Assembly: GCA_964640155.1 (NCBI GenBank)
Contig: CAZXEQ010000002.1
Location: forward strand, 150,001-182,000
Source: an uncultured bacterium
GTDB lineage: Bacteria; Auribacterota; JACPWU01
Direction of reading: 5' to 3'
DNA: 32,000 nucleotides
Within the stretch, counting starts at the first letter, position 1. Each line of letters starts with the position of its first letter. Shown piece after piece: positions 8,014-29,943 of the stretch. The translations under genes were made by a program, and so were the position numbers. The notes beneath the pieces were generated by a model that was given only the letters and a program-made list of their open reading frames with translations, was not told where the DNA came from and made no database searches.

Positions 8014-8037
8014 ATCAAATCCGTATTTTGTTTATTT

Positions 8038-9204: not shown

Positions 9205-9225
9205 GGATCAACTCCTTATGAAATC

Positions 9226-10443: not shown

Positions 10444-10570
10444 GATTTCACTCCTTCGATTTTGAAACATTATTTCTTAATGCTCATTAATACTAAATTG
10501 AAGTTTATCGGGGGTGGATTGTAGCAAATAGGAAAAGAATACTCAACGGGTATTCAAACCGATTTTTTAG

Positions 10571-10630
10571 AAAAAAATAGGGCTAAGGAAAAGGGAAATT
10601 TTTCTGCTGAACCCCTTAACGCTTAGCCCT
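10571..10630 (-). terminator. Intrinsic terminator downstream of the zinc-ribbon mini-gene
   Basis: AGGGCTAAG (10579-10587) pairs with CTTAGCCCT (10622-10630), with an inner AAGGG/CCCTT pairing. On the minus strand the stem is followed by a U7 run (A-run 10571-10577 on plus). Confidence 0.6.
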
Positions 10631-10641
10631 TACGTCTTAAA

Positions 10642-10785
10642 TTACTTCTTAGGAAGAATCTTAAACATACCCGTACCACAACTTGGGCATTTGCCTTGGG
10701 CCGCCTTCTTACCATTTTTCATAACTACTTCTTTAACATCTGTCATTTCTTTCTTTGCCTTACACTTTACGCAATAGCCTTCCAT
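10642..10785 (-). CDS. 47-aa zinc-ribbon protein (DUF5679-like), absent from the ORF track
   Basis: Translation is MEGYCVKCKAKKEMTDVKEVVMKNGKKAAQGKCPSCGTGMFKILPKK. It has a CxxC...CxxC pair, SD GGAGGAATC before the ATG, and its own terminator. Confidence 0.65.
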   Translation of the reverse strand: MEGYCVKCKAKKEMTDVKEVVMKNGKKAAQGKCPSCGTGMFKILPKK

Positions 10786-10873
10786 GATTCCTCCGTTCTT
10801 TTTAAAGTCCGAAATCCACTCCTGCCTCGTTTAATCCTACTTTTTTAACTAGAACTTTGTCAAACGTTAAAAC

Positions 10874-10953
10874 AGAGCTAAGGGCTAAGTGGTAAGAGCT
10901 AGAAAAATAATCGTCTTTGGTTTTTATCTTTTTAACTCTTAGCCCTTAACTCT
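10874..10953 (-). terminator. Long hairpin immediately 3' of the LysM-OMP gene, sharing its stem sequence with the 10571-10630 hairpin
   Basis: AGAGCTAAGGGCTAAG (10874-10889) pairs with CTTAGCCCTTAACTCT (10938-10953): 16 bp with one mismatch and a ~48-nt loop. The core TAAGGGCTAAG is the same as in the neighbouring terminator. Confidence 0.5.
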
Positions 10954-10955
10954 TT

Positions 10956-12080: not shown

Positions 12081-12096
12081 AGTAGTATTCCTCGCT

Positions 12097-14313: not shown

Positions 14314-14477
14314 GAATCCCCCCCTAAATTTTTTAAAACTTTAAAATAAAAATAAATTTAAGAAAATTCTGACGTTTTAATGAAGAAGATGCAAGAGGAT
14401 AATTTAAATAAACTTAAATCGCAAAGCGCAAACTACAGAGGAGGAAACTCAAAATTAAGAAATGTTCAATTTATTTT

Positions 14478-15512
14478 TTATGATTTGACCCAACCCAAAG
14501 CACTCGCTAGAGATCGAACAGATTTTCGAAAACTAGTCACAGAGTCATTGACCGCTGTAGGCTCATATCCCGAGTGAACCATGCAATTCTCACATTTTGG
14601 ATTACCACTTTTATGGCCGTACTTCGACCATTCTGTGGCCTCCAAGAGTTCTTGGAAGGTTTCTGCATAGCCTGCCTCTGCCATTAAGTAGCATGGCTTC
14701 TGCCAACCTAAAACACTGTAATTAGGATTCCCCCAAGGCGTACATTCATAATCTTGTTTGCCCATTAAGAATTCTAAATAAAAAGGAGAATGATTAAATT
14801 TCCAACGTTTTCTTAAAGAAGATCCATTGGCATTGAGAATGTTCGAAAAAAGTTTTTGAGTTTGTCCTCTTTTAAGAAAATGTTCTTGATCCGGCGCCTT
14901 TTCATAAGCATAACCTGGAGAAACCATCATCCCATCTACTTCAAGTTCAGTGAGTTTATCAAAAAGATTAATGATTTCCTGAGGATCGGTTCCGTCAAAA
15001 ACGGTTGTGTTGGTCGTCACGCGAAAACCTTTGCTTTTTGCAACCTGTATCGCATTGACTGCTTGTTTAAAAACACCTTTGCGATCAACCGCTTTGTCAT
15101 GAAGATTTTCCAGACCATCCATATGAACGCTAAAGGTCAAATAAACAGAAGGTTTAAATTTGTGAATGTGTTTTTCAAGAAGAATGGCATTGGTGCAAAG
15201 ATAAATAAATTTTTTACGTTCGATCAAACCCTGAATAATTTCTTCAATTTGAGGATGTAAAAGAGGTTCTCCACCAGCAACTGAAACAATAGGAACGCCG
15301 CACTCTTCGACCGCATGAAAACATTGTTCGGGTGTTAAATTTTTTCTTAAAATATCGGCTGGATATTGAATCTTTCCACAACCAGGACAGGCCAAATTAC
15401 ATCGAAAAAGAGGTTCCAACATCAAAACCAAAGGATAGCGCTTCCTTTTCTGCAAGCGCTGTTTTAAAACATATCCACCTACTTTTGCAATTTGTCGAAT
15501 TGGAACTCCCAC
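14478..15512 (-). CDS. hpnH: Radical SAM adenosyl-hopene transferase
   Basis: [22 protein letters not shown] is the CxxxCxxC radical SAM motif. There is extended by-eye similarity to HpnH through the C-terminal Cys cluster ([12 protein letters not shown]). GTG start with GAAGGGG upstream. Confidence 0.85.
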
Positions 15513-15612
15513 AGAACACCCCTTCTATAATATGATAGGCAACACTTTATCTATAATCTAAATCATAGTCAACGCTAGAATCCGTTATTGCATTACTACA
15601 TATTGTATAAAG

Positions 15613-15755
15613 AAGTGTGTCCTTTACAAGCGGGTGACACTCGGCGGGGAGCCCCCGCCGCGCGCAATTTTTCATGAGCACAGTGGGGCTGACGAGTGGC
15701 AGGCCCCGTTTCTTACCTCATCCTAAAGAACGGCGAAAAGGCCGAGAACACACTT
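15613..15755 (+). repeat. GC-rich structured repeat, copy 1 (full length; candidate ncRNA)
   Basis: The core is CGGGTGACACTCGGCGGGGAGCCCCCGCCG...CAGTGGGGCTGACGAGTGGCAGGCCCCG. A 3' extension carries the CGGCGAAAAGGCCG hairpin. The termini AAGTGTGT/ACACACTT are inverted repeats. Confidence 0.85.
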
Positions 15756-15787
15756 GTAAATCAGGATCTATTACTATGCATTATGGC

Positions 15788-15824
15788 AAAAAAAAGCGCC
15801 TAGGTATGGGGGCAACCTAGGCGC
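15788..15824 (-). terminator. Intrinsic terminator of the Tyr-rich mini-protein gene
   Basis: GCGCCTAGG (15796-15804) pairs with CCTAGGCGC (15816-15824). It is followed on the minus strand by a U8 run (A8 at 15788-15795 on plus). Confidence 0.85.
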
Positions 15825-15845
15825 CGGTACTACGAACAACTGTGT

Positions 15846-16073
15846 TTAGCAGCCGTAATCGTAGTAAACTACAGGGGCTGAATAATAGCCATAATCATAG
15901 TAGTATCGAGGATAACTGTAATAACCTCTGGCTGGACCATAATAAGTCCGATGATATCCTCCCCAAGGACGATAGCAAGATCTACGATAATGATCTGCAT
16001 TGGCTGAGGAAATCATTCCTTCGGAAAAAAGAAGTCCTACGATAGCTATTAACAAAGCAATTGTTTTTTTCAT
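15846..16073 (-). CDS. Small secreted Tyr/Gly/Arg-rich protein
   Basis: ATG 16073 has SD AAGGAGAG. The signal peptide is MKKTIALLIAIVGLLFSEGMISSANA. The ~49-aa mature part is about one-third tyrosine (YYGPARGYYSYPRYYYDYGYY) and has Cys near both ends. Confidence 0.75.
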   Translation of the reverse strand: MKKTIALLIAIVGLLFSEGMISSANADHYRRSCYRPWGGYHRTYYGPARGYYSYPRYYYDYGYYSAPVVYYDYGC

Positions 16074-16312
16074 ATTTTTAACTCTCCTTTCAAGTTCGAG
16101 TTTCATCTACTTTAAGAAGCAGAAAGCATGCCAAAATTCTAAAAAGGCATTTAATTACATTTTAACTATTTGTAATAGAGATAGTTACAACTTTACATAA
16201 AGACATAGCAACTCTACCTTCTTTCCTTCTCTTCTCCATTTTGAAGCACTTTTTCAGATAAAACTGCTTCAAAAAAATTTTAAATCCCCTTTTTAATCAA
16301 AAGATTTATAAT

Positions 16313-16332
16313 CCTTCAATATTTGAAGGAGG
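16313..16332 (+). promoter_or_regulatory. Hairpin partly sequestering the SD of the Rieske gene
   Basis: CCTTCAA (16313-16319), TAT, then TTGAAGG (16323-16329). The 3' arm overlaps SD GAAGGAGG (16325-16332), 9 nt before ATG 16342. Confidence 0.35.
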
Positions 16333-16341
16333 ACGTAAGAT

Positions 16342-16650
16342 ATGAGCCACTATGTGAAATTATCCAATGTAAAAGAAATCTCAGCTGGATCTGGAAAAGC
16401 GATAGAAGTTGAAGGAACTCCTATCGCCCTATTTAATGTAGATGGAAACTTTTATGCAATTTCCAACACTTGTAAGCATCGAGGAGGACCTTTAGGTGAA
16501 GGAAGTTTAGAAGGTCACGAGGTGATGTGTCCATGGCATGGTTGGCAATATGACGTCACAACAGGAGAATGTCCTTCCATTCCGAGTGCCTCTGTCAATA
16601 AATACAATCTCAAAATCGAAGGAGAAGAGATTTTTGTTGAACTCTCTTAA
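16342..16650 (+). CDS. Rieske [2Fe-2S] domain protein (NirD/ferredoxin-like)
   Basis: 102 aa with the CKHRGGPL and CPWHGWQY Rieske ligand motifs, and a strong SD. Confidence 0.88.
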   Translation: MSHYVKLSNVKEISAGSGKAIEVEGTPIALFNVDGNFYAISNTCKHRGGPLGEGSLEGHEVMCPWHGWQYDVTTGECPSIPSASVNKYNLKIEGEEIFVELS

Positions 16651-16662
16651 AACCTATTGAAT

Positions 16663-17682
16663 TTATGAATCATTAAAAGGGATTTCTTTTATTTCAGCAT
16701 GAATGATAAAGGTCCGTTTTGAATCTAAAGTTGAGATCTGATTTTCATCAAAAGGTTGCAATGATCCTTGATATTCTAACCACTTGATCAAAGCGGTGAT
16801 TTCATCTCTATTCTTAAGGATAATACGAAGATCATTTTCTTGTTTAATCAGACTCCCCCCTTTTTCTTCTAAAAACTGTGTTAGTCCATTGACAGCTAAA
16901 TCTTCATCTAAAACAATCCAAATCCATTTTTGTATTTCTTTTTGTGAATCGTTTATAGAGTCAAAAGAAATTGTTTTTTCTTTTTCCGGAAAAGCTCTGG
17001 ATTGCAAGGGAGTTATAGGACTAACAACTGAGCTTTCAGATTTTTGAGTTTCAACCAGTCCTCCTGGGAATGATGAAGCAGGTTTTGCTTCTAAATCTTC
17101 CTGGGAAGCCAAACTCTCGCTCCTTTTCATTTGATCTTTTGAAGTTTCCATCTCTTGAGCAAGAGACACTTGATTCTCAGATGATCTTTCTCGTGGGAGA
17201 GACAAAGACTTTTGAGGAGCAATAGAAGTATTTTCAACAACAGAGACAGGAGATAATTCTTTCTTTTCCAGCAAATCAAAATCTTCTTCTTTTTCTGAAG
17301 ATGCCCCAGTCCCCACAAATTCTTTTATAATCACAGGCCCCTTGGGGACAGGATGGCGCGGAAGCATTTCGTGAAATATAAAAAATCCAACGATTAAAAG
17401 AGCCGCTAACTGAATAGGAATCATAAGCCGTCGAGAAAGAAAAATGTTTTTAACTTTTTCTTCTCCTTTCAAACGCTTCTGAACAGTCTGAGCAAAACCA
17501 GTAGAAGCATGTACTTGCGAAAGGGTTTTAACTCCCTTTAAAAGCTTTTGAGATTTTTCAAGAAGGATTCGACAGGTTTCACACTGGTTCAAATGTTCTT
17601 CAAAAGCTTTTCTTTCTTCCCCTAAAAGCTCTTGATCTAAATAGGCATCTATTTTTTGAACAATATCCTTACAAGAGATCAT
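16663..17682 (-). CDS. Anti-sigma factor (zf-HC2 type) with one TM helix and a long low-complexity extracytoplasmic region
   Basis: N-terminal HLNQCETCRILLE is an HxxxCxxC motif. The TM helix is LMIPIQLAALLIVGFFIF. An ATGA overlap couples it to the upstream ECF sigma gene. Confidence 0.8.
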   Translation of the reverse strand: MISCKDIVQKIDAYLDQELLGEERKAFEEHLNQCETCRILLEKSQKLLKGVKTLSQVHASTGFAQTVQKRLKGEEKVKNIFLSRRLMIPIQLAALLIVGFFIFHEMLPRHPVPKGPVIIKEFVGTGASSEKEEDFDLLEKKELSPVSVVENTSIAPQKSLSLPRERSSENQVSLAQEMETSKDQMKRSESLASQEDLEAKPASSFPGGLVETQKSESSVVSPITPLQSRAFPEKEKTISFDSINDSQKEIQKWIWIVLDEDLAVNGLTQFLEEKGGSLIKQENDLRIILKNRDEITALIKWLEYQGSLQPFDENQISTLDSKRTFIIHAEIKEIPFNDS

Positions 17683-18266
17683 AAATGCTCCTTGAGCAAT
17701 TCTCTCAAACTCTTTCTTGCTCGTGAAAGCCTAGATTTCACTGTTCCCACATTCAAAGATAAAACTTTTGCAATTTCTTCATAAGAGAGCTCCTGCATAT
17801 CTCTTAAAACAATCACTTCTCGAAACTCGGCATCCAATTTTTTCAAACCCTCATCAATGGCTTCCAACATCTCTTTAGAAATAGCCTGCTCTCTGGACAA
17901 AGGAGCTTCATCGACAGGATCTATTTCAAACTCCCCCTCTTCATCCGAATATTTTGAAAAAGAAACCCAGGACCGCAATTTCTTCCATCGAAGCTTGCTC
18001 TTGGCCAAATTGATGGCAATGCGATAAAGCCATGTTGAAAATTTTGCATCTCCTCTAAAACTTTCTAAACTTCTAAAAGCCTTCACAAAAGCCTCTTGCG
18101 CCATGTCTTGGGCTTCTTCAAAATCTCTCAAAATCTGAAATACAACAGACACGATGTGGTCCTGATATTTCAACACAAGTTGATTAAAAGCTTCCAAATC
18201 TCCTCTTTTGGCAGCCTCTACCCAAGTTTTTTCTTGAAGCAGATCTTGTATTCGAGCCTCATCCAT
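17679..18266 (-). CDS. ECF-family RNA polymerase sigma factor
   Basis: 195 aa with region 2 (FSTWLYRIAINLAKS) and region 4 HTH (SYEEIAKVLSLNVGTVKSRLSRARKSL). Confidence 0.9.
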   Translation of the reverse strand: MDEARIQDLLQEKTWVEAAKRGDLEAFNQLVLKYQDHIVSVVFQILRDFEEAQDMAQEAFVKAFRSLESFRGDAKFSTWLYRIAINLAKSKLRWKKLRSWVSFSKYSDEEGEFEIDPVDEAPLSREQAISKEMLEAIDEGLKKLDAEFREVIVLRDMQELSYEEIAKVLSLNVGTVKSRLSRARKSLRELLKEHL

Positions 18267-18358
18267 TTATTTAGACGCCTTTTATCAGCAAAAGTTCCAA
18301 GCATTTTACTAAAAATAATGGGTTAGGTAACAATTTACTGTTTTTTGATCCCGTATCT

Positions 18359-18520
18359 AAAAGTGTATCTTTGGGCTTTTCGCCATCCTTGTAGGATTAG
18401 GTAAGAAACGGGTCCTGCCACTCGTCAGCCCCACCGTCCTCGCTTCAAAGCTGCGGGCGGCGGGGGGCTCCCCGCCGAGTAGCACCCGTATTGTAAAGGA
18501 CCTGCTTTTTACACACGATC
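18359..18520 (-). repeat. GC-rich structured repeat, copy 2 (full length; candidate ncRNA)
   Basis: The reverse complement matches copies 1 and 5 over the core and 3' extension (GGCGAAAAGCC). The 5' flank GATCGTGTGTAAAAAG is shared with copy 3. It lies between the divergent ECF sigma gene and the 18622 operon. Confidence 0.85.
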
Positions 18521-18621
18521 TGTTTTTAGGGAACTTTTTCATAAGCCTTGCGTCTAAGTAAGTAGAAATCAAACTTATGTATTTGATACTATTTATGCAA
18601 ATCTAACAGGAGGAAAATGAA

Positions 18622-19092
18622 ATGAACAAAATAAGGGTTACACAATTTATTCTACCTCTATTTTTTCTTGCAATATTTTCTTTCTGTAAAGCAGACGATA
18701 TTCCAAAAACTTTTCCTTCAGAACAAGAAGCTTACAATTTACTCCTAAATGATAAAACTTTTAGCCTTACTGGAGCAGGCATTGCGTTTACTCCACTTAA
18801 ACAAGTTGATGCAATGAAAAATATTCTCGCATCTCCTCATTCTACAGAACAGTTGATTTCACTTTATGAAAAAGGATCTGCTGTTGCAAAACTTTATTCC
18901 TTAACAGGACTTTGGTATTCGAACAAAGAAGAATATCTTTCTAGGGTCGGGAAAGTAAAAAAAGAGAATCCTAACATTCCTGTATGTATGGGAGGCTGTA
19001 CCATGGGAACTTTTCAGCAAACATCTGTAGAAGTCATTAAAAACATTGAAACAAATTATTTCGATGAGTTTTTTCGAAAAAAATCTAAATAA
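18622..19092 (+). CDS. Small exported protein, unknown function
   Basis: SD AGGAGGA precedes the start. The signal peptide is MNKIRVTQFILPLFFLAIFSFCKA. It is the first gene of the operon with the 19128 and 20671 genes. Confidence 0.75.
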   Translation: MNKIRVTQFILPLFFLAIFSFCKADDIPKTFPSEQEAYNLLLNDKTFSLTGAGIAFTPLKQVDAMKNILASPHSTEQLISLYEKGSAVAKLYSLTGLWYSNKEEYLSRVGKVKKENPNIPVCMGGCTMGTFQQTSVEVIKNIETNYFDEFFRKKSK

Positions 19093-19127
19093 AAAGAGTT
19101 AACTATAAGATCATAAGGAGAAACAAA

Positions 19128-20591
19128 ATGAAACTAAATCTCGCAAAAACAAAAAATGTCTTAAATTCATTTCTCACTTTCTTCGCTTTTCTTTATTTAT
19201 CAAGCGCTCATCTAGGAATGGCAGAGCTGAAATCTCAGCAATCCACACTCTCCGATCGAAAAAGTGTGAATATCACGATTTATAATTCGGATTTAGGGTT
19301 GGTAAAAGAAACACGGTCCCTCAAACTTGAAAAAGGACTTTTGAATTTGGCTTTTATGGATGTAGCGTCCAAAATTCAAACAGAAACCGTTCACATCAAA
19401 TCTTTATCCGATCCTGCTAGTCTTTCCATTCTTGAACAAAATTACCAATACGATTTACTTAGCCCTGAAAAATTACTTGAAAAATACATTGGTAAAAAAA
19501 TCAAAGTTTATCGCTGGAATGATGTGACCGGCAAAGATCAAGAATATGAAGCTGAAGTTCTTTCAAACAATAATGGCACCATTCTCAAAATAGGAGATGA
19601 AATTACTTATGGTTTTCCTGCACGCTTCTCTTTCCCTGAAGTCCCTAAAAATCTTATTTCCAAACCTACGCTTGTCTGGCTTTTGGAAAATGAACTCCCT
19701 GAACAAGAATTAGAAGTGTCTTATTTAACAGAAGGCATGACCTGGAAATCAGATTATGTTTTAACCGTGAATAAAGATGAAAATGGTGGAGATTTCAATG
19801 GGTGGGTTACACTCAACAATACCAGTGGGACGATTTACGAGAATGCAACTTTAAAGCTGGTAGCAGGAGATGTTCATCGTATCCCTAAGCCAGTGGAATA
19901 TGATTATTTACAAGCAGAATCAGTCGCAGCACCAAGAATGGCAAAAGCGCCTGCTGGCTTCAAAGAAGAATCTTTTTTTGAATATCATCTTTATACGCTT
20001 CAAAGACCCACCACACTTCTCAATAATGAGCAAAAACAAGTTTCTCTTCTGGAAGCCCCTAATATTAAACTTGAGAAGAAGCTCATTTTTTATGGCCAAC
20101 CTTATTATTATCGAGGTTCTTACGGCCAAGTCATGTCCAATCAAAAAGTCGGCGTTTATCTCGACATTGAAAATAAAAAAGAAAACGGCATGGGCATGCC
20201 TCTTCCTAAAGGCAATGTGCGTGTTTATAAAGCCGATGCAGAGGGATCTCTTCAATTCATTGGTGAAGATTCCATTGATCACACTCCCAAAGACGAAAAA
20301 GTCCGAATTAAAATGGGAGAAGCCTTTGACGTGGTAGGCCAACGTAAACAAATGGAATGGAAAGCGCAAGCGCTTTGTGGCTCTGAATCCACTTGGGAAG
20401 TAACACTAAAAAATCACAAAGATCAAGATGCTGCAGTGGAAGTTGTAGAACCTATTCATGGCGACTGGAAAATTCTTTCCTCTTCCCATCCTTATGAAAA
20501 GATCGATGCCCATACATTCACATTCAAAATCGTTGTCCCCAAAAATGGAGAAGTCAAAATTCAATATCGCGTTCAAATTGATTGGTGTTAA
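19128..20591 (+). CDS. DUF4139-like (MuiA-family-like) exported protein
   Basis: SD AAGGAGA precedes the start, and there is a signal-like N-terminus. The N-terminal pattern VNITIYNSDLGLVKETRSLKLEKGLLNLAFMDVASKIQTETVHIKSL is typical of DUF4140/DUF4139 proteins. Assignment is by eye. Confidence 0.65.
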   Translation: MKLNLAKTKNVLNSFLTFFAFLYLSSAHLGMAELKSQQSTLSDRKSVNITIYNSDLGLVKETRSLKLEKGLLNLAFMDVASKIQTETVHIKSLSDPASLSILEQNYQYDLLSPEKLLEKYIGKKIKVYRWNDVTGKDQEYEAEVLSNNNGTILKIGDEITYGFPARFSFPEVPKNLISKPTLVWLLENELPEQELEVSYLTEGMTWKSDYVLTVNKDENGGDFNGWVTLNNTSGTIYENATLKLVAGDVHRIPKPVEYDYLQAESVAAPRMAKAPAGFKEESFFEYHLYTLQRPTTLLNNEQKQVSLLEAPNIKLEKKLIFYGQPYYYRGSYGQVMSNQKVGVYLDIENKKENGMGMPLPKGNVRVYKADAEGSLQFIGEDSIDHTPKDEKVRIKMGEAFDVVGQRKQMEWKAQALCGSESTWEVTLKNHKDQDAAVEVVEPIHGDWKILSSSHPYEKIDAHTFTFKIVVPKNGEVKIQYRVQIDWC

Positions 20592-20592
20592 T

Positions 20593-20650
20593 AAAAATCG
20601 TATTGCGTCATGCGTTGTGTGTACTACGTAAAAAACATAACGCATGACGG
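20593..20650 (+). repeat. Stop-codon-proximal ACG/CGT-rich hairpin, member A
   Basis: CGTCATGCGTT (20606-20616) pairs with AACGCATGACG (20639-20649). The first ~40 nt are about 80 percent identical to member B (23713-23755). Confidence 0.7.
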
Positions 20651-20670
20651 ACAAAGACAAGGAGACATGT

Positions 20671-23600
20671 ATGAAAATCTTAAAATTAGTTTTAGTAATA
20701 CCGCTTATATTTCTAACTCTGCTCTCTTTAAAAGCAGATACGCCTACAAATGGATACATTTCCCTCACCGCTCCGGATGGGACAGGACTTGAATTAAGAG
20801 ATATGAAAGTAAAAGCTGTTGTCGATGGGATGACTGCTTTCACAGAAATGGAATTAACTTTCTATAATCCAGAAAATCGTCAAAGAGAAGGCCATTTTTC
20901 CATTTTGCTTCCTCCTAAAGCTACCATGAGTCGATTTGCCATGAGGATCAATGACCGTTGGCAAGAAGGTGAAGTTGTTGAGACTCGAAAAGCGCGCCAA
21001 GCCTATGAAGATTTTCTTCATCGCAAGCAAGATCCTGCTTTATTGGAACAGGATAATGGAAATATGTTTAGAGCCCGTATTTTCCCTATTCCTGCCAATG
21101 CTGAAAAAAAGTTGATTGTGTCCTATTCTGAATTATTGGTAAACAATCATGCAACTTACGTTTTCCCTCTCAAAGGACTCCCCCAACTCAAAAACATGTC
21201 CATCAAGGTTTTTTATAAGGATAAATCTGTCCCAACAGGAAAAGATTCTGGAGTTGTCTCATCTCTGGGAGGACAAGTGAAGAATTGGCAAGTCATGAGT
21301 GTTGAAAAGAAAGATTATCAACCTGATCAGGATTTTTCTTTGAGCTTTCCTTCTGCACAAAAAGATATTTATGCACTGCGTGTGGACAATATGGCTGCCG
21401 TGAAATTTCAACCTTTGCCAATAGATTTAAAATGGAAAAGTAAAATCTTAAATGACTGGGTCATTCTCTATGATACGTCTGCATCCCAAGCACTAGATTA
21501 TGAGAAAAATTTGGGTCAATTTGGGAAAATTCTCCAAGAACTGTTTGATAGCAAAGCAGCGAGTTCAGCTTTAATCATTGCCTTTGATCAGGAAGTTAAA
21601 AAAATTGGAGAAATCACTAAAAGTAACGAAATTAATACTGTTCTTTCTTCTTTAAAAGAACGCCAAGCATTAGGGGCTTCGAATTTTGAATTAGCTTTTA
21701 CAGAGTTATCTAAATTAACTGACTCTCAAGAGCGTCGCTTGCTTATTATCTCTGATGGCGCACCCACAGCCTTTGAAACAAATAAAATAAAGTTATCTGA
21801 GATACTCTCTAAAATTACATCTATTGAAAGAACTGATTGCTTAGCCTTGTCTACTTATCGCAATGAAGATTTTCTAACAGCACTGTCTCGAGCAAGCGAT
21901 CAAGCAGGTGTTGTTCTCAATGGGGAAATAGGACAAGAAGCAATGATTAAAAAATTAAATACTCCAACATGGAAAGAGATCTCCATCGACGTCCCAGGAG
22001 CCGAATGGTTTTGGCCTCAAAAGCTTGAAGGTCTTCAACCAGGAGATGAAATCGTGGTGTTCGCAGAAATTGCCAAAGACAAACCTTTTCAGATTAAAGA
22101 TTCCTTTAAAAAAGAAATCATCACTTTACAACCAGAGTTAACAGAAAAAGAACTTCTCAAACGGGAATGGGTCAAGGCCCGGATTCAAAAACTTCTAGAA
22201 AACGAAGCAACTTCTCAAGATAAAGACATGAAAAGTGCAATGCATAATGAAATCATCCGACTTTCAGAAAAAGAACGTGTTTTGTCCCCCTATACCTCTC
22301 TTTTAGTTTTGGAAACAGAATGGGATTATCAAAGATATAAAATTGATCGAAATGCTTTGGCGGATATTTTGACCATTGGATCAGATGGACTCACACTCAT
22401 CAATCGAAAGGCAGAAGACATCCCTGTTGTTCAGCCTGTTGCTTCAAAACAAAACACTCGTGTCCAAGGTCTTGCTCTTCGCAAACAAGAAGCTACACCA
22501 GGCGAAGGAGATTTAGCTCGAAATGGAGCTGCTCCTGCATTAGCAGAAGAAAGAATGGAATTTGAGGAAGCTGATTTTAAAGCTAAAGAGGGCGGTTCTT
22601 TAGACGCTGCAACGCCCGCACGAGAAGTAGAACAAGCTGTACAAACAGGGACTTCTTCAACTCTAAATCAAGTGGCAAAAAGATCCGAAACAGAGGATAC
22701 GTCAGAACTAGCGCAACAAAGAAGGATAATTACACCTCCTTCAAATCCAGTCCCCTCCATCGTCTCTGAACAAGTGAGTGGAGCAAGCAACATTGAAACA
22801 AATGGGAAAGAGCCCTGGATTGGAGATTATGCCCAAGCCAAGAAAATGATGAAAGATTCAGATCTTAAATCCACCAAGGAATTTATTTTACAGTGGAGAG
22901 CCAAAAATCCTGCCGATGCATTGGCACTCATTGCCCTTGGAGAAGTAGAAGCTAAAATGGGCAATGGTAGCGCTGCTGCCCGTGCTTATGGTTCACTGAT
23001 AGATCTTTTCCCTTCTCGAGCTGATATTCGACGTTGGGCCGCCGAACGTCTTTTGGAAATTACCGAAGGTCATGTCTTGGCTAAAGACTCTCTGATCAAA
23101 GCCAATGAACAAAGAAAAGATCATCCTTCAGGATACGTATTGCTTGCCACAGCAGAGATGATCACGGGACATTTAGATTCTGCGATTAACATTCTTGTAG
23201 CAGGTTTAAGTCGTCAATATCCAGATCGATATCCTCAAGTAGATCGAATCATGAAAGAAATAATTGGTTTAATCTTATCCTCCAAGCAGGGGCAGCATTT
23301 ACTTAAAGATGAATCTGTTCAAGAAATTGCAAGAAAATACAACATCAACACAAAAATGAAATCTCAACTGCGATTCCTCTTAACTTGGGAAACCGATGCC
23401 AATGATGTGGACTTTCATATTTATGACAAAGACAAGAACCACGCTTATTATCAAGGCAAAATCCTAAGTTCCGGTGGCGAGCTTTATGCAGACATCACAC
23501 AAGGATACGGCCCTGAATGTTTCACTGTAGAAAATCCGAAAGCTTTCCCTTATCAACTTCAAGCCCATTATTATTCTCGCGGCCCTATGGGATATGGCAT

Positions 23601-23712
23601 GGGTTTATTACAAATTGTTCGTTTGTCTGAGGATTTAAACTTGTCAATCGAGAATAGACCTTTTATCATCATGCAAGATCAAGCCTTTGTTAATTTGGGA
23701 GAAGTAGCTTAA
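20671..23712 (+). CDS. Secreted VIT - vWA - TPR-like - DUF2135 multidomain protein
   Basis: The start at ATG 20671 has SD AAGGAGA and gives the signal peptide MKILKLVLVIPLIFLTLLSLKA. The VIT-like region is FAMRINDRWQEGEVVETRKARQAYEDF...FRARIFPIPANAEKKLIVSY. The vWA domain has a MIDAS motif, DTSAS. The C-terminal LTWETDANDVDFHIYDKD...ITQGYGPECF matches the YfaP-type DUF2135 pattern. Confidence 0.8.
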   Translation: MKILKLVLVIPLIFLTLLSLKADTPTNGYISLTAPDGTGLELRDMKVKAVVDGMTAFTEMELTFYNPENRQREGHFSILLPPKATMSRFAMRINDRWQEGEVVETRKARQAYEDFLHRKQDPALLEQDNGNMFRARIFPIPANAEKKLIVSYSELLVNNHATYVFPLKGLPQLKNMSIKVFYKDKSVPTGKDSGVVSSLGGQVKNWQVMSVEKKDYQPDQDFSLSFPSAQKDIYALRVDNMAAVKFQPLPIDLKWKSKILNDWVILYDTSASQALDYEKNLGQFGKILQELFDSKAASSALIIAFDQEVKKIGEITKSNEINTVLSSLKERQALGASNFELAFTELSKLTDSQERRLLIISDGAPTAFETNKIKLSEILSKITSIERTDCLALSTYRNEDFLTALSRASDQAGVVLNGEIGQEAMIKKLNTPTWKEISIDVPGAEWFWPQKLEGLQPGDEIVVFAEIAKDKPFQIKDSFKKEIITLQPELTEKELLKREWVKARIQKLLENEATSQDKDMKSAMHNEIIRLSEKERVLSPYTSLLVLETEWDYQRYKIDRNALADILTIGSDGLTLINRKAEDIPVVQPVASKQNTRVQGLALRKQEATPGEGDLARNGAAPALAEERMEFEEADFKAKEGGSLDAATPAREVEQAVQTGTSSTLNQVAKRSETEDTSELAQQRRIITPPSNPVPSIVSEQVSGASNIETNGKEPWIGDYAQAKKMMKDSDLKSTKEFILQWRAKNPADALALIALGEVEAKMGNGSAAARAYGSLIDLFPSRADIRRWAAERLLEITEGHVLAKDSLIKANEQRKDHPSGYVLLATAEMITGHLDSAINILVAGLSRQYPDRYPQVDRIMKEIIGLILSSKQGQHLLKDESVQEIARKYNINTKMKSQLRFLLTWETDANDVDFHIYDKDKNHAYYQGKILSSGGELYADITQGYGPECFTVENPKAFPYQLQAHYYSRGPMGYGMGLLQIVRLSEDLNLSIENRPFIIMQDQAFVNLGEVA

Positions 23713-23730
23713 AAACCATATTGCGTTTAA

Positions 23731-23768
23731 CGTTGTGCGTGATGCGTAAAGCAAAAATCGCACGACGC
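23731..23768 (+). repeat. Stop-codon-proximal hairpin family, member B: 38-nt core (left arm of a perfect inverted repeat)
   Basis: The core is CGTTGTGCGTGATGCGTAAAGCAAAAATCGCACGACGC. It starts 18 nt after the VIT gene stop. It also has a local hairpin, CGTGATGCGT (23738-23747) with ACGCATCACG (23772-23781). Confidence 0.9.
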
Positions 23769-23796
23769 GTCACGCATCACGAGGTACAGTTTTTAT

Positions 23797-24132
23797 ATGA
23801 TTTCACTTTATGCTAAAACTGATGACGAAGAAATTTCAGCTGCTTTTCAAGAGTTAGGACCTGCTCAAGAAATTAAGCAAATTACTTTTCCATGGAAGGG
23901 GCAAGAGGTTCTGTGTGATATCACGGGTTGGCAAAATGAACCGGAGCCTCAAAAAACTCCCGCATTTGCTCAACCCATCACAGACTCGGGAGACGCTCAG
24001 GCCATTCTCATCTATGGAGGAGAAGGTGGAGTTATGATCAAACCCTCTTCCCTGAAAGAACCCTGGAATCCCCAAAGTCCTCATCAGGAAAGAAGAGTTT
24101 ATTTAGTTGTTTCTGCGTCTTGCCTTCTTTAA
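23797..24132 (+). CDS. Hypothetical 111-aa protein bracketed by the 38-bp inverted repeat
   Basis: Open frame with a weak SD (GAGGTA 11 nt upstream). No recognisable motif. An antisense frame is also open. There is no room for its own promoter after member B. Confidence 0.4.
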   Translation: MISLYAKTDDEEISAAFQELGPAQEIKQITFPWKGQEVLCDITGWQNEPEPQKTPAFAQPITDSGDAQAILIYGGEGGVMIKPSSLKEPWNPQSPHQERRVYLVVSASCLL

Positions 24133-24156
24133 AAACCGTTGTATGTAATGCGCACT

Positions 24157-24194
24157 GCGTCGTGCGATTTTTGCTTTACGCATCACGCACAACG
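24157..24194 (-). repeat. Stop-codon-proximal hairpin family, member C: 38-nt core (right arm, exact reverse complement of 23731-23768)
   Basis: GCGTCGTGCGATTTTTGCTTTACGCATCACGCACAACG is the exact reverse complement of member B's core. In minus orientation it begins 18 nt after the stop (24213) of the 72-aa gene. Confidence 0.9.
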
Positions 24195-24212
24195 CTCGAC
24201 AAAACACGGTCT

Positions 24213-24428
24213 TTAAGTCACTTCACGCCTGGGATCTTCAATCAGATTCTCAATCTCAAAACTTTTCGCACCAAATTCTTTTGCGATTGAGATCAATTCT
24301 TTGCAATCCTCAAAACGCTCCTCTAACAAGGCTTCTTTTAAATAAAGAAGTGCTGTTAGCTTCACAGGATGATTCTTAACAGCCCCTCCTTTAATTGAAG
24401 AAACAATGGTTTCTAATTCATCTTTCAT
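24213..24428 (-). CDS. Hypothetical 71-aa acidic helical protein
   Basis: The start is moved to ATG 24428 (MKDELETIVSSIK...), which has a strong SD AAGGAGGGG. The longer track ORF would read through the upstream terminator U-tract. Confidence 0.65.
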   Translation of the reverse strand: MKDELETIVSSIKGGAVKNHPVKLTALLYLKEALLEERFEDCKELISIAKEFGAKSFEIENLIEDPRREVT

Positions 24429-24470
24429 ACACCCCTCCTTTTTCTTTAATTTTTTCATTGGTTTTTCTCC

Positions 24471-24512
24471 AAAAAAAAAACCCATGACTGATAGTCCAGT
24501 CATGGGTTTTTT
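24471..24512. terminator. Strong bidirectional intrinsic terminator, acting as a leader terminator for the 24428 gene
   Basis: A10 (24471-24480), CCCATGACTG (24481-24490), a 6-nt loop, CAGTCATGGG (24497-24506), then T6 (24507-24512). Confidence 0.85.
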
Positions 24513-24563
24513 AAAAATTGTTTTAAGTTACTTCAGGAAATATTCACCTTTTGTCCTTTAAAA

Positions 24564-24574
24564 CCCATGACTGG
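24564..24574 (-). promoter_or_regulatory. Putative antiterminator arm
   Basis: On the minus strand this reads CCAGUCAUGGG. It duplicates the 3' arm of the terminator and is an 11-nt perfect complement of its 5' arm (CCCAUGACUGG, 24506-24496). Confidence 0.5.
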
Positions 24575-24735
24575 ACGCAACCCGTACAGAGAAAAGAGAG
24601 CTACCTTAGCCTCTGTTCTCATAGGCTTCATAATCCAACGATGTGTTTTTGAACAAAAAGTCATTTTAATACCTTCATTTACTTGATTTAAAAGTTACCA
24701 TGGATTTTTGATGAAATCAAGCTTTTTTAAAAATA

Positions 24736-24866
24736 TCTCCTTTTCAAAAGTAGCGGGTCCTGCCACTCGTCAGCCCCACCGTCCTCGCTTCAAAGCTGCG
24801 GGCGGCGGGGGGCTCCCCGCCGAGTGTCACCCGTATTGTAAAGGACACACTTTTTTGCACACGATC
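24736..24866 (-). repeat. GC-rich structured repeat, copy 3 (core plus short 3' part; candidate ncRNA/leader element)
   Basis: The reverse complement reads GATCGTGTGCAAAAAAGTGTGTCCTTTACAATACGGGTGACACTCGGCGGGGAGCCCCCCGCCG...CGGTGGGGCTGACGAGTGGCAGGACCCG. Confidence 0.85.
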
Positions 24867-24887
24867 CTTTCTTTAAAAACTAAATCG

Positions 24888-25033
24888 ATATTGTTTATCA
24901 GAAGATGAAGACCATTGGACCCCGATATATCGGGGATAGGAATCCCGATGTTTTATCGGGATGAGCGAGAGCTCCTTGAGATCGTTTGGCTCGCAGGGCC
25001 AAACGACGTGTCCGAAAATCTGATAAACAATAT
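24888..25033. repeat. Multi-hairpin element closed by a perfect 15-bp inverted repeat (MITE-like or structured RNA)
   Basis: The closing stem is ATATTGTTTATCAGA (24888-24902) with TCTGATAAACAATAT (25019-25033). Inner hairpins are CCCCGATATATCGGGG (24920-24935), ATCCCGAT/ATCGGGAT (24942-24962), GAGC-GAGA-GCTC (24963-24974) and CGTTTGGC/GCCAAACG (24983-25005). Confidence 0.75.
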
Positions 25034-25056
25034 ATCTTAACTTCGGGAGAGACCTT

Positions 25057-25971
25057 TCAATTCCCGTGATAGGAAGTAATCCAACGTACAGTCCCGCTGG
25101 TTGATCGCATAAAAACACTATTTGTCACAGGCCCTTGAGAAGTAAACCTCACACCTCGCAAAAGGCTTCCATTGGTAATTCCGGTCGCAGCAAAAATGCA
25201 CTCTCCCTTAACCAAATCTTCAAGAGAATAAACTCTTGAGTCTATCTTCCCTTGAGCATCTACGATCTGAATCTGAAAATCCCCTCTCAAACACTTGATT
25301 GCACATGCTGTAATGACCGCCTCGGGAGCTCCTCCAATGCCATATAAAAGATCTATCCCGCTGTCTTCAAGACATGATGCGATGGAGGCCGAAACATCGC
25401 AGTCCTGAATCAATTTAATTCTTACCCCTATTTTTCTTAGATTCGTGATTAATTCCTGATGACGAGGACGGTCCAAAACGCAGACAACGATATGTGATTT
25501 TTCCTTTCCGGTTGCAACAGAAATAAGCTCAATTGTTCTAGATAAAGGATCTGTGATAGAAAGCCGAATCTTGCGCGCAACTTGAGGGCCATAAGCAAGT
25601 TTATTGACATAAAAGGAAGAGGTTGAAAAAAGGCTGCCCTTTTCAGCAACAGCTAAAACGCTTAAGGCTTCAGGTCCAGAATTTACAGTCGGACGCGTCC
25701 CTTCAATAGGATCCACCGCCAAGTCATAAACCTTCCCTCCAGCCATACCTCCTGTGCCCACTTTTTCACCATTAAAAAGACCTGCGCTCTCGTCTTTAAT
25801 CCCCTCACCAATCACAATATGACCTGTGATTTCAATCCTATTCAGTCGCTTTCTCATCGCATCCGTTGCAGCCTGATCTGCGGCTTTTTTGTCTCCACTT
25901 CCAATCCATGCAGACGCAGCAATGGCTGCAGCCTCTGTTACACGCATCATATCTAAATGAATATCTTTCAC
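25057..25971 (-). CDS. glpX: Class II fructose-1,6-bisphosphatase
   Basis: RVTEAAAIAASAWIGSGDKKAADQAATDAMR, VDPIEGT and LYGIGGAPE resemble GlpX. I prefer GTG 25971 (GGAG 6 nt upstream, N-terminal length like E. coli GlpX) over the track's TTG at 26019. Confidence 0.88.
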   Translation of the reverse strand: MKDIHLDMMRVTEAAAIAASAWIGSGDKKAADQAATDAMRKRLNRIEITGHIVIGEGIKDESAGLFNGEKVGTGGMAGGKVYDLAVDPIEGTRPTVNSGPEALSVLAVAEKGSLFSTSSFYVNKLAYGPQVARKIRLSITDPLSRTIELISVATGKEKSHIVVCVLDRPRHQELITNLRKIGVRIKLIQDCDVSASIASCLEDSGIDLLYGIGGAPEAVITACAIKCLRGDFQIQIVDAQGKIDSRVYSLEDLVKGECIFAATGITNGSLLRGVRFTSQGPVTNSVFMRSTSGTVRWITSYHGN

Positions 25972-26108
25972 GACAATCTCCGAATCAACTTTAAAAGTAA
26001 AAAATTCCTTATCCAGCAATGAATATACTAATGAGAAACAAAGGATTTTTCTAATGAATAATTATTCAAAGAATAAAAAAATAGGCATCTATCTCCCATC
26101 TTAAAATC

Positions 26109-26225
26109 AAAAGTGTAGCTTTTATAAATCCGGGTGACACTCGGCGGGGAACCCCGCCGCCCGCAGCTTTAAAGCGAGGACGGTGGGGCTGACGAGTGGC
26201 AGAACTCGTTTCCTTTTAAAAAGCT
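26109..26225 (+). repeat. GC-rich structured repeat, copy 4 (core plus outer helix, no 3' extension)
   Basis: Sequence is AAAAGTGTAGCTTTTATAAATCCGGGTGACACTCGGCGGGGAACCCCGCCG...CGGTGGGGCTGACGAGTGGCAGAACTCG...TAAAAAGCT. It lies in the glpX/cysD divergent spacer, upstream of the cysD promoter. Confidence 0.85.
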
Positions 26226-26284
26226 CTCCCTTTTATATACAGAATCATTTTTTTGAGGCTCCCTCTTTCTCAAAAAGCAAAATG

Positions 26285-26293
26285 TGATATAAT
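26285..26293 (+). promoter_or_regulatory. Extended -10 promoter (TGaTATAAT) for cysD
   Basis: TG at 26285-26286, one spacer base, then a consensus TATAAT at 26288-26293. It lies ~27 nt before the cysD ATG. The -35 is weak. Confidence 0.55.
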
Positions 26294-26319
26294 AAGTGCC
26301 CTTTTTGAAGGAAAGACTT

Positions 26320-27201
26320 ATGGATCATTTAGAAAAATTAGAAAGTCAATCGGTATACATTTTAAGAGAAGCCTATAGCCAATTTAAGAATTTGGCCATG
26401 CTTTGGTCTATTGGAAAAGATAGCACCGTTCTTTTATGGTTGGCTCGCAAGGCCTTTTTCGGCCATGTTCCCTTCCCACTCGTTCATATTGATACCGCTT
26501 ATAAAATCCCTGAAATGATTCAATATCGAGATCGTTTGGCTTTGGAATGGCATCTCAATATGGTCTATGGCCAAAATCAGGAAGCACTTAAAAACAAACA
26601 AACTTTCCCAGACGGGGCTTTGGATCGTATTTCCTGCTGCAAAACCCTCAAAACGGAAGCCCTTAGAAATACGCTTTCTGGAGCCTGGCCCCGCTTTCGC
26701 ATGGATCATGAGAAAAAAAAATATGTCTTAGATGAAAACAAAGAGCCTTACACTGGAGTCATTGTAGGCGTACGTGCTGATGAAGAAGGAAGTCGATCCA
26801 AGGAAAGATATTTTTCTCCACGAGATAAACATAATGACTGGAATATTGGAGATCAACCTCCAGAACTTTGGAATCAATTCAAAACAGATTTTGCTCCTGG
26901 GACTCATATTCGCGTTCATCCTCTTTTAGATTGGACAGAACTCAACATTTGGGAATATATCGACAGAGAAAATATCCCTGTCGTCCCCCTCTATTTTGAT
27001 CAAGGCAAAGGAGAACGCTATCGATCTTTAGGCTGTTATCCTTGTACATTTCCAGTCCAATCAAAAGCAAAAAATATAAAAGAAATTATTGAAGAATTAA
27101 GAACAGGAAAATTTTCTAACATTGCCGAGCGCGCGGGGCGTGCACAAGATAAAGAAGATGGCGGTGGGCTTGAAACTTTGCGTCGAGAAGGGTACATGTA
27201 A
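26320..27201 (+). CDS. cysD: Sulfate adenylyltransferase subunit 2
   Basis: [22 protein letters not shown]..., the PAPS-reductase-fold SIGKDS motif and C-terminal [12 protein letters not shown]...REGYM are as in CysD. ATG 26320 with GAAGGAAAG upstream is preferred over the track's GTG at 26296. Confidence 0.9.
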
Positions 27202-27204
27202 GCC

Positions 27205-29004
27205 ATGAACAAAACCCACGCTCAAGCCATCAAAATGAATATTGTCATTGTTGGACATGTCGATCATGGCAAAAGCACTGTGATTGGAAGACTTTTAGCT
27301 GACACCCATTCTTTGCCTGAAGGAAAGCTTGAACAAGTCAAATTGGATTGTAAACGTAACTCCAAACCCTTTGAGTATGCTTTCTTACTGGACGCTTTAA
27401 AAGACGAACAAGCACAGGGAATCACCATCGACACCGCCCGCTGTTTTTTCAAAAGTAAAAAAAGAGAATACATTATCATCGACGCCCCTGGACATATTGA
27501 GTTTTTAAAAAATATGATCAGTGGCGCCGCTCGTGCTGAAGCAGCGCTCCTTGTAATTGACGCCAAGGAAGGCGTACAAGAAAATTCTAAGCGACATGGA
27601 TATTTGCTTTCACTTTTAGGAATTCGTCAGGTTGCCGTCTGTATCAACAAAATGGATTTAGTCAATTACAGCGAAAAAACCTTTAAAGAAATTGAAAAAG
27701 AATATAAAGCCTTTTTAAAACCCATTGGTCTTGAGCCCAAGGCATTTATCCCCATTGCAGCCATGCTCGGAGATAATATCGTTGAATCCTCTCAAAATCT
27801 TTCTTGGTATAAAGGCCCTTCGATTTTAGAAATGTTAGACACTTTCGAAAAAGCTCCCAATCTTGAAGACAAGCCTTTCCGTATGCCTGTTCAAGCTGTT
27901 TATAAGTTTACAGAAGCAGGTGATGATAGACGCATTGTCTCAGGCAGAATTGAATCAGGATCCATCATGGTAGGAGATAAAGTCATCTTCCTTCCTTCCA
28001 ACAAGCGCTCTGAAATCAAAACGATTGAAGAATTTAACACCCCTATTCGAAAAAAAGCAGTCGCTGGCTATTCTGTAGGATTCACTTTAAAAGAGCAAAT
28101 CTACGTCAATCGTGGCGACATTTTGTGCAAACTGGAAGAAGAACATCCTTTGGTAAGTCCCCTGTTCCAAGCCGAAATTTTCTGGATGGGACGAGATCCC
28201 ATGACACTTGATAAAGAATATAAATTAAAAATTGGAACCGCTAAAACAACCATTCGCATTAAAGAAATTAAAAAAGTTATCGATGCTTCCCAACTCAAAA
28301 AAGCTGAACACAAGAAACAAATTGATCGTCATGAAGTGGCTCAATGTATTTTTGAATGTACTCAACCCATTGCATTTGATTTAGCACACACCGTCGAAGC
28401 CACGGGACGATTTGTCATTGTCGATAAATATGATATTGCGGGCGGAGGAATTATTTCAAGTCTCGTCAAAGATGAACAATCAGAAGTACGCGAGCAAGTT
28501 CAACAAAGAGAAATGAATTGGGATTTTAGCATTATCGATCCTAAAGAACGTGAAACCTCCTACGGGCATCCCCCGAAACTTATTCTTCTCACGGGTAAAG
28601 TAGGTGTAGACAAAAAGACCATTGCAAAAGAAGTCGAAAAAACTTTATTTGACAAAGGAATTAAAACCTATTTTTTAGGAATGGGAAACCTCCTGCGTGG
28701 ACTTGATGCCGATCTTGAAAAGAATAAATCAGCCCGGCATGAACACATTCGTCGTATGGCAGAAGTCGCGCACTTGCTTTTAGATGCAGGACTGATTGTC
28801 CTAGCTACAGCCAGCAACATGAGGGATGATGAGTTAAAACTTTTTCAAGAAGTGACAGACCGAGCTTCTATTTTTGTGATCAATGTAGGAGAAAATCAGT
28901 TTAGAGATAGCATTACAGATCTCAACTTAAACGAAAAAGATTCAACAATCAAAAATTCAAAAAAAATCCTTCAGCTTTTAGAAAAAGAAAAAATTATTTC
29001 CTAA
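27205..29004 (+). CDS. cysN: Sulfate adenylyltransferase subunit 1 (GTPase) fused to a degenerate APS-kinase-like domain
   Basis: The GTPase motifs are [14 protein letters not shown] and NKMD. The C-terminal ~150 aa align by eye with CysC, but the P-loop is GKVGVDKKT and LDGDNVR is replaced by LGMGNLLR. Confidence 0.88.
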
Positions 29005-29031
29005 AAAACAAAATTTGTCTTTAGACTCTCT

Positions 29032-29179
29032 AAAAGTGCGTCCTTTATGAATGCGGGTGACGCTTGGCGGGGCGCCCCATCGAGCGCAATTTTTAATGAG
29101 CACGATGGGGCTGACAAGCGGCAGGACCCGCCACTTTTTCAATCCTAAAGGACGGCGAAAAGCCCGAGGACCCACTTTT
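29032..29179 (+). repeat. GC-rich structured repeat, copy 5 (full length, most divergent; candidate ncRNA)
   Basis: Sequence is AAAAGTGCGTCCTTTATGAATGCGGGTGACGCTTGGCGGGGCGCCCCATCG...CGATGGGGCTGACAAGCGGCAGGACCCGC...TAAAGGACGGCGAAAAGCCCGAGGACCCACTTTT. It fills the cysN to 29194 spacer. Confidence 0.85.
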
Positions 29180-29193
29180 AGAAACACAATCAT

Positions 29194-29943
29194 ATGTCGT
29201 CATTGAAAAACATTCAAATTGTCCTTGTCCGAGCTGAGAATCCAATCAATATTGGACAGGCTGCGCGTTCAATGAAAAATTTTGGGTGCTCTAACCTGAG
29301 TTTGGTTAACTGTGCAGCTCATCAAACTCCGGAAGCTTATACTGTCGGGTGGAAAGCCAAAAAAATTCTAGACTCGGCCACGATTTTCAAAAACTTACCC
29401 AAAGCATTAAAAGGATGTGAACTCTGTATTGGCTTTACTACAAGAGCAAGGAATAAACGCAACATCCCTGTCCCCTTTTCTCAAATCCTTCCCCAAATTT
29501 TAGAAACAATGAAAACTCAAAAAGTTCATTTGATTTTTGGAAATGAAAAAAATGGGCTTTCAAATGAAGAATTGAATTCTTGCCATATCTTGGCAACCCT
29601 TCCCGCAAATCCCATCTATCCCTCTCTAAATCTTTCTCATGCGGTAGCCATTACGCTGGCACAAATTTTTTCAAATGTTTTTGAATCCAAAAAACTCTTC
29701 AAAAATCGTGCACGTTTTTTTGCAAACAGACAAGAGCTTAAAACTCTGATGAATAATTTTTCTGAAGTTTTTTATCTTTTGAAATATGATCTTTCTATGA
29801 ATAAGGATCTCTTGCCTACAGTACAAAGACAACTCAAAAATTTCTTTCTTAAAAGCAGTTTGGAACGTAGAGAACACCATTTATTTATAGCCCTTCTCTA
29901 TAAAATTAAAGCTGCATTGAATAAGAAGGAGCAACATCAATGA
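29194..29943 (+). CDS. SpoU/TrmH-family RNA 2'-O-methyltransferase (TrmJ-like)
   Basis: IVLVRAENPINIGQAARSMKNFG, LIFGNEKNGLSNEE and LNLSHAVAI are SPOUT motifs. No SD; the ATG lies 15 nt after repeat copy 5. Confidence 0.8.
   Translation: MSSLKNIQIVLVRAENPINIGQAARSMKNFGCSNLSLVNCAAHQTPEAYTVGWKAKKILDSATIFKNLPKALKGCELCIGFTTRARNKRNIPVPFSQILPQILETMKTQKVHLIFGNEKNGLSNEELNSCHILATLPANPIYPSLNLSHAVAITLAQIFSNVFESKKLFKNRARFFANRQELKTLMNNFSEVFYLLKYDLSMNKDLLPTVQRQLKNFFLKSSLERREHHLFIALLYKIKAALNKKEQHQ

Follow-up and report, generated by a model that had tools for sequence, protein, structure and literature searches.

We analysed a stretch of DNA of 32,000 nucleotides, referred to here as the window, from an uncultured bacterium of the phylum Candidatus Auribacterota (GenBank assembly GCA_964640155.1, contig CAZXEQ010000002.1, positions 150,001 to 182,000), in which five copies of a GC-rich repeat are dispersed over unrelated, AT-rich sites between genes. 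The genes beside the copies encode a radical SAM/DUF3463 protein, an ECF sigma factor, GlpX, CysD and the CysNC/SpoU pair; they are unrelated to one another, and both orientations relative to neighbouring genes occur among the copies. This agrees with the view, put forward in a preliminary description of this DNA, that the repeat is not a simple single-regulon riboswitch.

The copies lie where that description had placed them, but alignment with wider flanks showed that the elements are longer than it stated, extending over 136-174 bp, with three long copies of 170-174 bp that run from GATCGTGTGTAAAAAG... to ...CTTTTAGATACGGGATC. Copies were counted with a degenerate 18-mer from the 3′ arm, GGGGCTGACRAGYGGCAG, which matches exactly these five places and nowhere else in the window; by chance, 0.02 copies would be expected (dinucleotide shuffles). 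The elements have a GC content of 49-56%, and their cores 63-70%, in a window of about 38% GC. The five copies, designated c1 to c5, are as follows.

c1, 15599-15768, plus strand: long form, 170 bp; 5′ inverted-repeat end, core at 15631-15708, side hairpin CGGCGAAAAGGCCG, and 3′ inverted-repeat end ...CAGGATC.
c2, 18347-18520, minus strand: long form, 174 bp; begins GATCGTGTGTAAAAAG..., core at 18409-18488, side hairpin GGCGAAAAGCC, end CTTTTAGATACGGGATC.
c3, about 24731-24866, minus strand: mosaic or short form; core at 24754-24833; 3′ boundary approximate.
c4, about 26097-26246, plus strand: short form, about 150 bp; core at 26131-26208; both boundaries approximate.
c5, 29021-29191, plus strand: long form, 171 bp; core at 29054-29131; side hairpin GGCGAAAAGCC at 29154-29164.

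At 136-174 bp the elements are too short to hold a transposase gene. Copy c1 is slightly decayed, with C:A and U:C mismatches within its core. Short-read contigs of the same organism in the Logan collection (100% identity) break off inside the element, as one would expect of a dispersed repeat.

The three long copies carry imperfect terminal inverted repeats of about 25 bp, with a consensus of roughly GATYGTGTnTnTAAAAGTGYGTCC. Counted by eye, the two ends match at 18 of 24 positions in c5, where they are best preserved (TCTAAAAGTGCGTCCT / AGGACCCACTTTTAGA), at 16 of 25 in c1 and at 15 of 25 in c2; the best-kept inner block common to both ends is AAAAGTGYGTCC. Immediately outside these ends, each long copy is flanked by 8-bp direct repeats, which are identical at 7 of 8 positions for c1 and c2 and at 6 of 8 for c5. 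The chance of finding an identity of at least 7/8 at that fixed spacing is about 0.001 per site, using the window itself as the null. The target-site duplications are these.

c1 left, 15591-15598, plus strand: CATTACTA, 7/8 identical to its partner TATTACTA.
c1 right, 15769-15776, plus strand: TATTACTA.
c2 upstream, 18521-18528, minus strand: TAAAAACA, 7/8 identical to its partner AAAAAACA.
c2 downstream, 18339-18346, minus strand: AAAAAACA.
c5 left, 29013-29020, plus strand: ATTTGTCT, 6/8 identical to its partner ATATGTCG.
c5 right, 29192-29199, plus strand: ATATGTCG, which holds the ATG (29194) of the SpoU-type methyltransferase gene.

Comparison with a related genome showed that several of these sites exist without the element. 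An exact 27-mer from the core was found in only one other representative genome, the metagenome-assembled genome (MAG) ‘Candidatus Auribacterota bacterium SZ_szas25bin.51’ (GCA_041906865.1), which holds two copies, L001 and L002, beside genes for DCC1-like, AstA and HAD proteins. Its GlpX is 97% and its CysNC 96% identical to those of the window, and, since its DNA is 72-94% identical over syntenic stretches, we regard it as another species within the same genus. One of its contigs, JAYRIK010000087 (L254), is colinear with window positions 6661-23993 and lacks both c1 and c2: at the c1 site it has 14 nt vs 176 nt in the window, and at the c2 site (L254 5954-5976) it has 23 nt vs 205 nt, with a single TAAAATAT. 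Where the MAG reads ...GTTCCATAAAATATGATAATTG..., the window, minus the element and one copy of the repeat, reads ...GTTCCCTAAAAACAGTAAATTG...; the c2 site is thus cleanly empty, with the target present once. At the c5 site, on contig JAYRIK010000280 (L260), the spacer between cysNC and spoU is 16 nt vs 189 nt in the window and has a single GTATGTCG, containing the spoU ATG; c5 is also absent from a relative at 82% amino-acid identity (L261), in which this spacer is 30 nt. As c1, c2 and c5 are absent from the sister species, their insertions postdate the species split.

The other two sites tell of older insertions that have been eroded. At the c4 ortholog in the MAG (L138) the ends alone remain, the interior CGGGTGACACT...GGGGCTGA having been deleted, and at the c3 ortholog on the same contig a diverged 5′ arm is left while the apical part and the 3′ arm are gone. 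In the window c3 is itself a mosaic: over its core and 5′ inverted repeat it shares 94% identity with c2, its 3′ tail (CTACTTTTGAAAAGGAGATA) is of the type found in L001 and in the MAG remnant, and it is without the GGCGAAAAGCC hairpin. We infer that copies have undergone recombination or conversion with one another.

The core of the element folds into a strongly supported hairpin. RNAalifold, given the five window copies together with L001 and L002, returned a consensus that is one unbranched, rod-like, GC-rich hairpin with 0 branch points, and this consensus holds the nested helices P1, P2 and P3 that had been proposed from inspection of the letters. From its base outwards the rod consists of P1 (CGGGU/ACCCG), a 2x5 internal loop, P2 (CACUCG/CGAGUG), a G/A mismatch and a CGG/CUG step; above these are a bulge of 4-6 nt, GGAG(CC), then P3 (CCCCGCCG/CGGUGGGG) and a small apical stem-loop. 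Counting of pairs supports the helices: standard pairs fill 97.9% of 189 pair cells in the seven-copy alignment, six pairs show changes on both sides, the observed covariation score was reached by none of 500 column shuffles (0/500), and control partners slid by 1-3 columns pair in just 33-47% of cells. The compensatory changes singled out in the preliminary description were all confirmed, namely CACUCG/CGAGUG to CGCUUG/CAAGCG in P2 of c5, CCCCGCCG/CGGUGGGG to CCCCAUCG/CGAUGGGG in P3 of c5, and GUCCUUUA/UAAAGGAC to AGCUUUUA/UAAAAAGCU in the outer helix of c4. Its two versions of the apical insert are real, but as homologous sequences that differ by swaps of G:C for C:G and of A:U for G:C. Its conserved alternative fold, in which GGCGGGG would pair with CCCCGCC, did not survive: the partner strand reads CCCCAUC in c5 and CCCCACC in L002, and we reject this fold because these changes in the C-rich strand are compensated only in its P3 partner while GGCGGGG is invariant. 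The covariation is thus real, yet by itself it is no proof of a functional RNA.

[quoted passage not shown] This follows because they are small and non-coding, have inverted-repeat ends and 8-bp duplications, occur in multiple intergenic copies, have empty orthologous sites, and include older copies that are decaying. The size and absence of a transposase gene, the target-site duplication, and the presence or absence at orthologous sites are all those of a MITE; the terminal inverted repeats resemble those of a MITE to a moderate degree. Two possibilities had been offered at the outset, a mobile repeat family and an undescribed non-coding RNA; the former holds, at the level of DNA, with its target duplications and empty sites, and the latter is not supported, since presence and absence together with target-site duplications was the very outcome named beforehand as refuting it.

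In the mechanism that we consider likely, a DDE-type transposase encoded elsewhere in the genome would recognise the ends of the element and cut its target with an 8-bp stagger, giving rise to the 8-bp direct repeats. Older copies decay or recombine, as the internally deleted orthologs of c3 and c4 and the mosaic c3 show. IS256-like or IS5/ISH1-like insertion sequences (ISfinder) fit the combination of an 8-bp duplication with ends that start with GA, and are offered as a lead only.

Several observations weigh against this MITE interpretation. We found no transposase, and no full-length parent insertion sequence with matching ends, in the DNA that was read, about 50 kb from the source genome and about 40 kb from the MAG; the search covered the window proteins scanned with Pfam, the MAG open reading frames (ORFs) beside its copies, and the Pfam-annotated genes of the flanking Logan contigs and of the MAG locus in synteny. 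When the 32-nt termini were aligned end to end by program, they did not score above shuffles; taken alone, the inverted repeat is a moderate feature that convinces in its inner AAAAGTGYGTCC block and its terminal GAT(C/T) but not elsewhere. For c3, c4 and the two MAG copies there is no recognisable target duplication beyond chance, and at the c1 site the surrounding spacer has diverged in the MAG, such that no base-for-base match is possible there. Finally, the strongly conserved, covarying internal hairpin is unexplained by the MITE model alone, because a cut-and-paste transposase needs only the ends. The compensatory changes show that the copies able to fold are those that spread or persist. 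We favour the idea that the hairpin is kept for a reason at the level of the DNA or of the element, for example to draw the ends together or to make a folded intermediate more stable; where neighbouring transcription reads through a copy, RNA could be affected as a side effect.

The sequence family itself is new, being outside Rfam and having no phage, plasmid, viral or metagenome match, while the kind of element to which it belongs is well known. Against Rfam 15 no copy gave a match at the gathering thresholds, at which the window has only two tRNAs, elsewhere, and at E<=10 the sole overlap with the copies was a 19.7-bit DicF match in c5, which is noise; the earlier impression that this is no Rfam family was therefore sound. 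Phage and plasmid collections held no match to the element, two scans of viral contigs gave chance matches only, and a metagenome scan with GGGGCTGACNAGNGGCAG gave chance matches in GC-rich contigs, none of them with the 5′ half of the element. A covariance model (R1) found no copy in the DNA flanking the window, over 10 kb on its left and 8 kb on its right, and none in about 87 kb of relatives at 76-82% amino-acid identity (L139, L140, L261-L264); the family therefore looks genus-restricted. The copies look clustered at places that have intergenic space.

An addition to the MITE model, as opposed to a replacement for it, would be that the element is mobile but that its GC-rich rod has been selected for an action as RNA when it is co-transcribed with its neighbours. 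The rod could then act as a portable hairpin like an intrinsic terminator or insulator, as a feature that stabilises messenger RNA or is a target of RNase, or as a protein-binding module, with SPRITE, ERIC, Correia and bcr1 elements as models. We see this as a tentative and rather unlikely proposal. In its favour, every helix covaries; there is a precedent in bcr1, a MITE-like repeat that is transcribed and maintains its structure in the RNA (PMC3184786); and four of the five window copies are sense to their downstream gene. Against this, c1 and L002 each run antisense to both flanking genes, and the hairpin has been lost in the sister-species orthologs at the c3 and c4 sites, which means that there is no locus-specific requirement for it.

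The question of strand bears directly on such a role. Consensus pairs fill 185 of the 189 cells on the strand on which the helices are written here, vs 172 of 189 on the complement, and a preference for that strand had been argued from its G:U pairs. That argument proved weak, as a single invariant G:U pair accounts for 7 of the 15 wobble cells and the minimum free energies of the strands are about equal (c2, -44.5 vs -43.4 kcal/mol; c5, -41.3 vs -40.0 kcal/mol); no strand preference by folding energy was found. Moreover, a G:T wobble forms in single-stranded DNA too, so a wobble bias cannot separate RNA from DNA.

For a terminator-like function, the observations are mixed. A U-rich run follows the core, reading UUUCUU in c1, c2 and c4 and CUACUUUU or CCACUUUUU in c3, c5 and L001, and c3 is downstream of glpX and c5 of cysNC, each gene being co-oriented with its copy. 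These are the only two of the five window copies in that position, however; c2 and c4 separate a gene from its likely promoter region, a place in which termination would do harm; the spoU ATG comes 3 nt after the end of c5, so that spoU probably needs read-through; and a scan for consensus terminators flagged only a sub-hairpin of c4.

A stronger form of the same idea, that the rod is a functional RNA module spread by transposition (a protein-binding RNA, a self-processing RNA or a transcription insulator), seems to us improbable. If it were true, it would represent an RNA borne by a MITE, with invariant internal-loop nucleotides (GGGG, CUGA, GCAG) and helices maintained by compensation, in a candidate phylum without cultured members.

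We think it more improbable still, to the point of being very hard to sustain, that the copies stand alone as genes or as cis-regulatory units belonging to a new class of structured RNA, such as a riboswitch, ribozyme or small RNA, each retained at its locus to serve a local function. The conserved fold with its compensatory changes would suit such a class, as would the invariance of several unpaired nucleotides (GGGG, CUGA and GCAG), the lack of a matching Rfam family, and the intergenic location of copies that are often just upstream of genes. Against it stand the three copies absent and two decayed at orthologous sites of the sister species, the target-site duplications and inverted-repeat ends, the unrelated neighbours in both orientations, and internal-loop nucleotides that differ among copies (GA/GC, AG/AA/CG/GG); the empty sites largely refute it. 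The motif CUGACGAG is not a hammerhead core. A hammerhead, which has an invariant CUGANGA core, GAAA and a three-way junction, was considered and rejected: c5 reads CUGACAAG, its G-to-A change being matched by the helix partner (C:G to U:A), and the fold has no branches.

Least credible of all is an origin as palindromes of the REP/REPIN type, or derived from IS200/IS605, moved as single-stranded DNA hairpins by a Y1 (RAYT/TnpA) transposase: a strand-biased hairpin with G:T-compatible wobbles in an intergenic, GC-rich, imperfect palindrome would be expected of them, but there are 8-bp target duplications and terminal inverted repeats, neither of which Y1-mobilised elements produce, a GTAG-type head is lacking, the arms do not form a pair of inverted REP units (an extra GCGGGGAG sits in the 5′ arm), both orientations occur within 14 kb, and no Y1 transposase was present among the window proteins scanned, the remaining ORFs being outside the direct scan. 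Compensatory changes were reportedly also seen in REPIN hairpins by Bertels and Rainey in 2011.

Viewed as a MITE, the element documents a recently active family in Candidatus Auribacterota and gives a first view of mobile elements in this uncultured phylum, where they are essentially undescribed, and it accounts for assembly breaks in the short-read data of this organism. It also serves as a warning for annotation: the covarying, Rfam-negative hairpins upstream of cysD, the ECF sigma gene and spoU are insertions and not regulatory leaders. In this respect the family is a clean case of convincing covariation in a selfish repeat, a known trap for pipelines that seek non-coding RNAs. The c5 insertion lies 3 nt upstream of the spoU ATG, such that the entire upstream sequence of this gene is now the end of the element; by replacing that sequence it may provide a natural experiment in gene expression.

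At c1, the 5′ end read outwards (15602-15629, minus strand) contains a sigma-70-like match, TTGTAA and TACAAT separated by 16 nt, which faces the radical SAM/DUF3463 gene, the start of which is at a distance of 87 nt. Other copies also have the -35 part (TTGTAA, from CCTTTACAA), but with a weaker -10 part. The c1 insertion may thus have created an outward promoter, as predicted from these motifs.

Other elements lie near the copies. Adjoining c3 is a 146-bp segment at 24888-25033 with perfect 15-bp inverted repeats (ATATTGTTTATCAGA / TCTGATAAACAATAT) and several short GC palindromes. It is probably another recent MITE-like insertion, because the stretch downstream of glpX (24755-25058) is about 304 nt vs about 85 nt in the sister MAG (L138); the 81-amino-acid ORF that overlaps this segment (24873-25118) is probably spurious. 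A 95-nt repeat occurs as two inverted copies, at 23701-23795 and 24130-24224, which are 78% complementary, share an identical 34-nt core (GTGCGTGATGCGTAAAGCAAAAATCGCACGACGC) and have no further copies within the window. Its arms, each with a terminator-like hairpin, bracket a 111-amino-acid ORF (23797-24132) that has no Pfam match, and BLAST alignments to MAG contigs L254 and L138 span both arms. On the minus strand at 24472-24600 there is a strong terminator-like hairpin, AAAACCCAUGACUG...CAGUCAUGGGUUUUUUUUU, with sub-threshold Rfam matches to His_leader (30 bits) and PyrR (25.6 bits). This is probably a mere intrinsic terminator; it overlaps the start of a 96-amino-acid ORF (24213-24503) and casts doubt on that start. 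A gene about 8 kb beyond the right edge of the window (L136 8430-10079) encodes a ThyX-domain protein of 549 amino acids, unusually long for ThyX. The proteins of the window are also found in the Logan assemblies SRR8893623, SRR31893870, DRR784955, DRR784962 and SRR19881398.

Considering known small repeats of bacteria, REP/REPIN sequences associated with RAYT are likewise intergenic, GC-rich, imperfect palindromes whose hairpin is kept by paired changes, but REPINs are without the inverted-repeat termini recognised by DDE enzymes and without target-site duplication, both of which the present element has. SPRITE, which resembles a rho-independent terminator (Delihas 2011, PMC3184786), is also a dispersed repeat with a fold like a GC-rich stem followed by U residues (PMC3184786). 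SPRITE is biased to the 3′ ends of genes, whereas here two of five copies follow a co-oriented gene and one lies 3 nt before a start codon.

The closer likenesses are with the MITE-like repeats. Correia/NEMIS elements of Neisseria, ERIC/IRU of enterobacteria and RUP of the pneumococcus are, like ours, intergenic elements of 100-200 bp with terminal inverted repeats, target-site duplication and a long stem-loop, which are mobilised in trans and differ by presence or absence between related genomes. Ours differs from them in being a new sequence family and in its asymmetric core, with the extra GCGGGGAG in the 5′ arm in place of two near-identical halves. The bcr1 repeat of the Bacillus cereus group is about 155 bp long, has 5-bp direct repeats, is transcribed, has a non-conserved distribution and retains its fold through compensatory changes (PMC3184786). 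It shares with our element the character of a small, non-coding, dispersed repeat with short flanking direct repeats and a distribution that is not conserved between close relatives, and in both a predicted stable fold is kept by compensatory changes while in some copies structural stability is lost (PMC3184786). The two have no similarity in sequence, the direct repeats are 5 bp in bcr1 vs 8 bp here, the host phylum differs, and bcr1 is known to be transcribed; the present element is further distinguished by its high GC content, set within a genome of about 38% GC.

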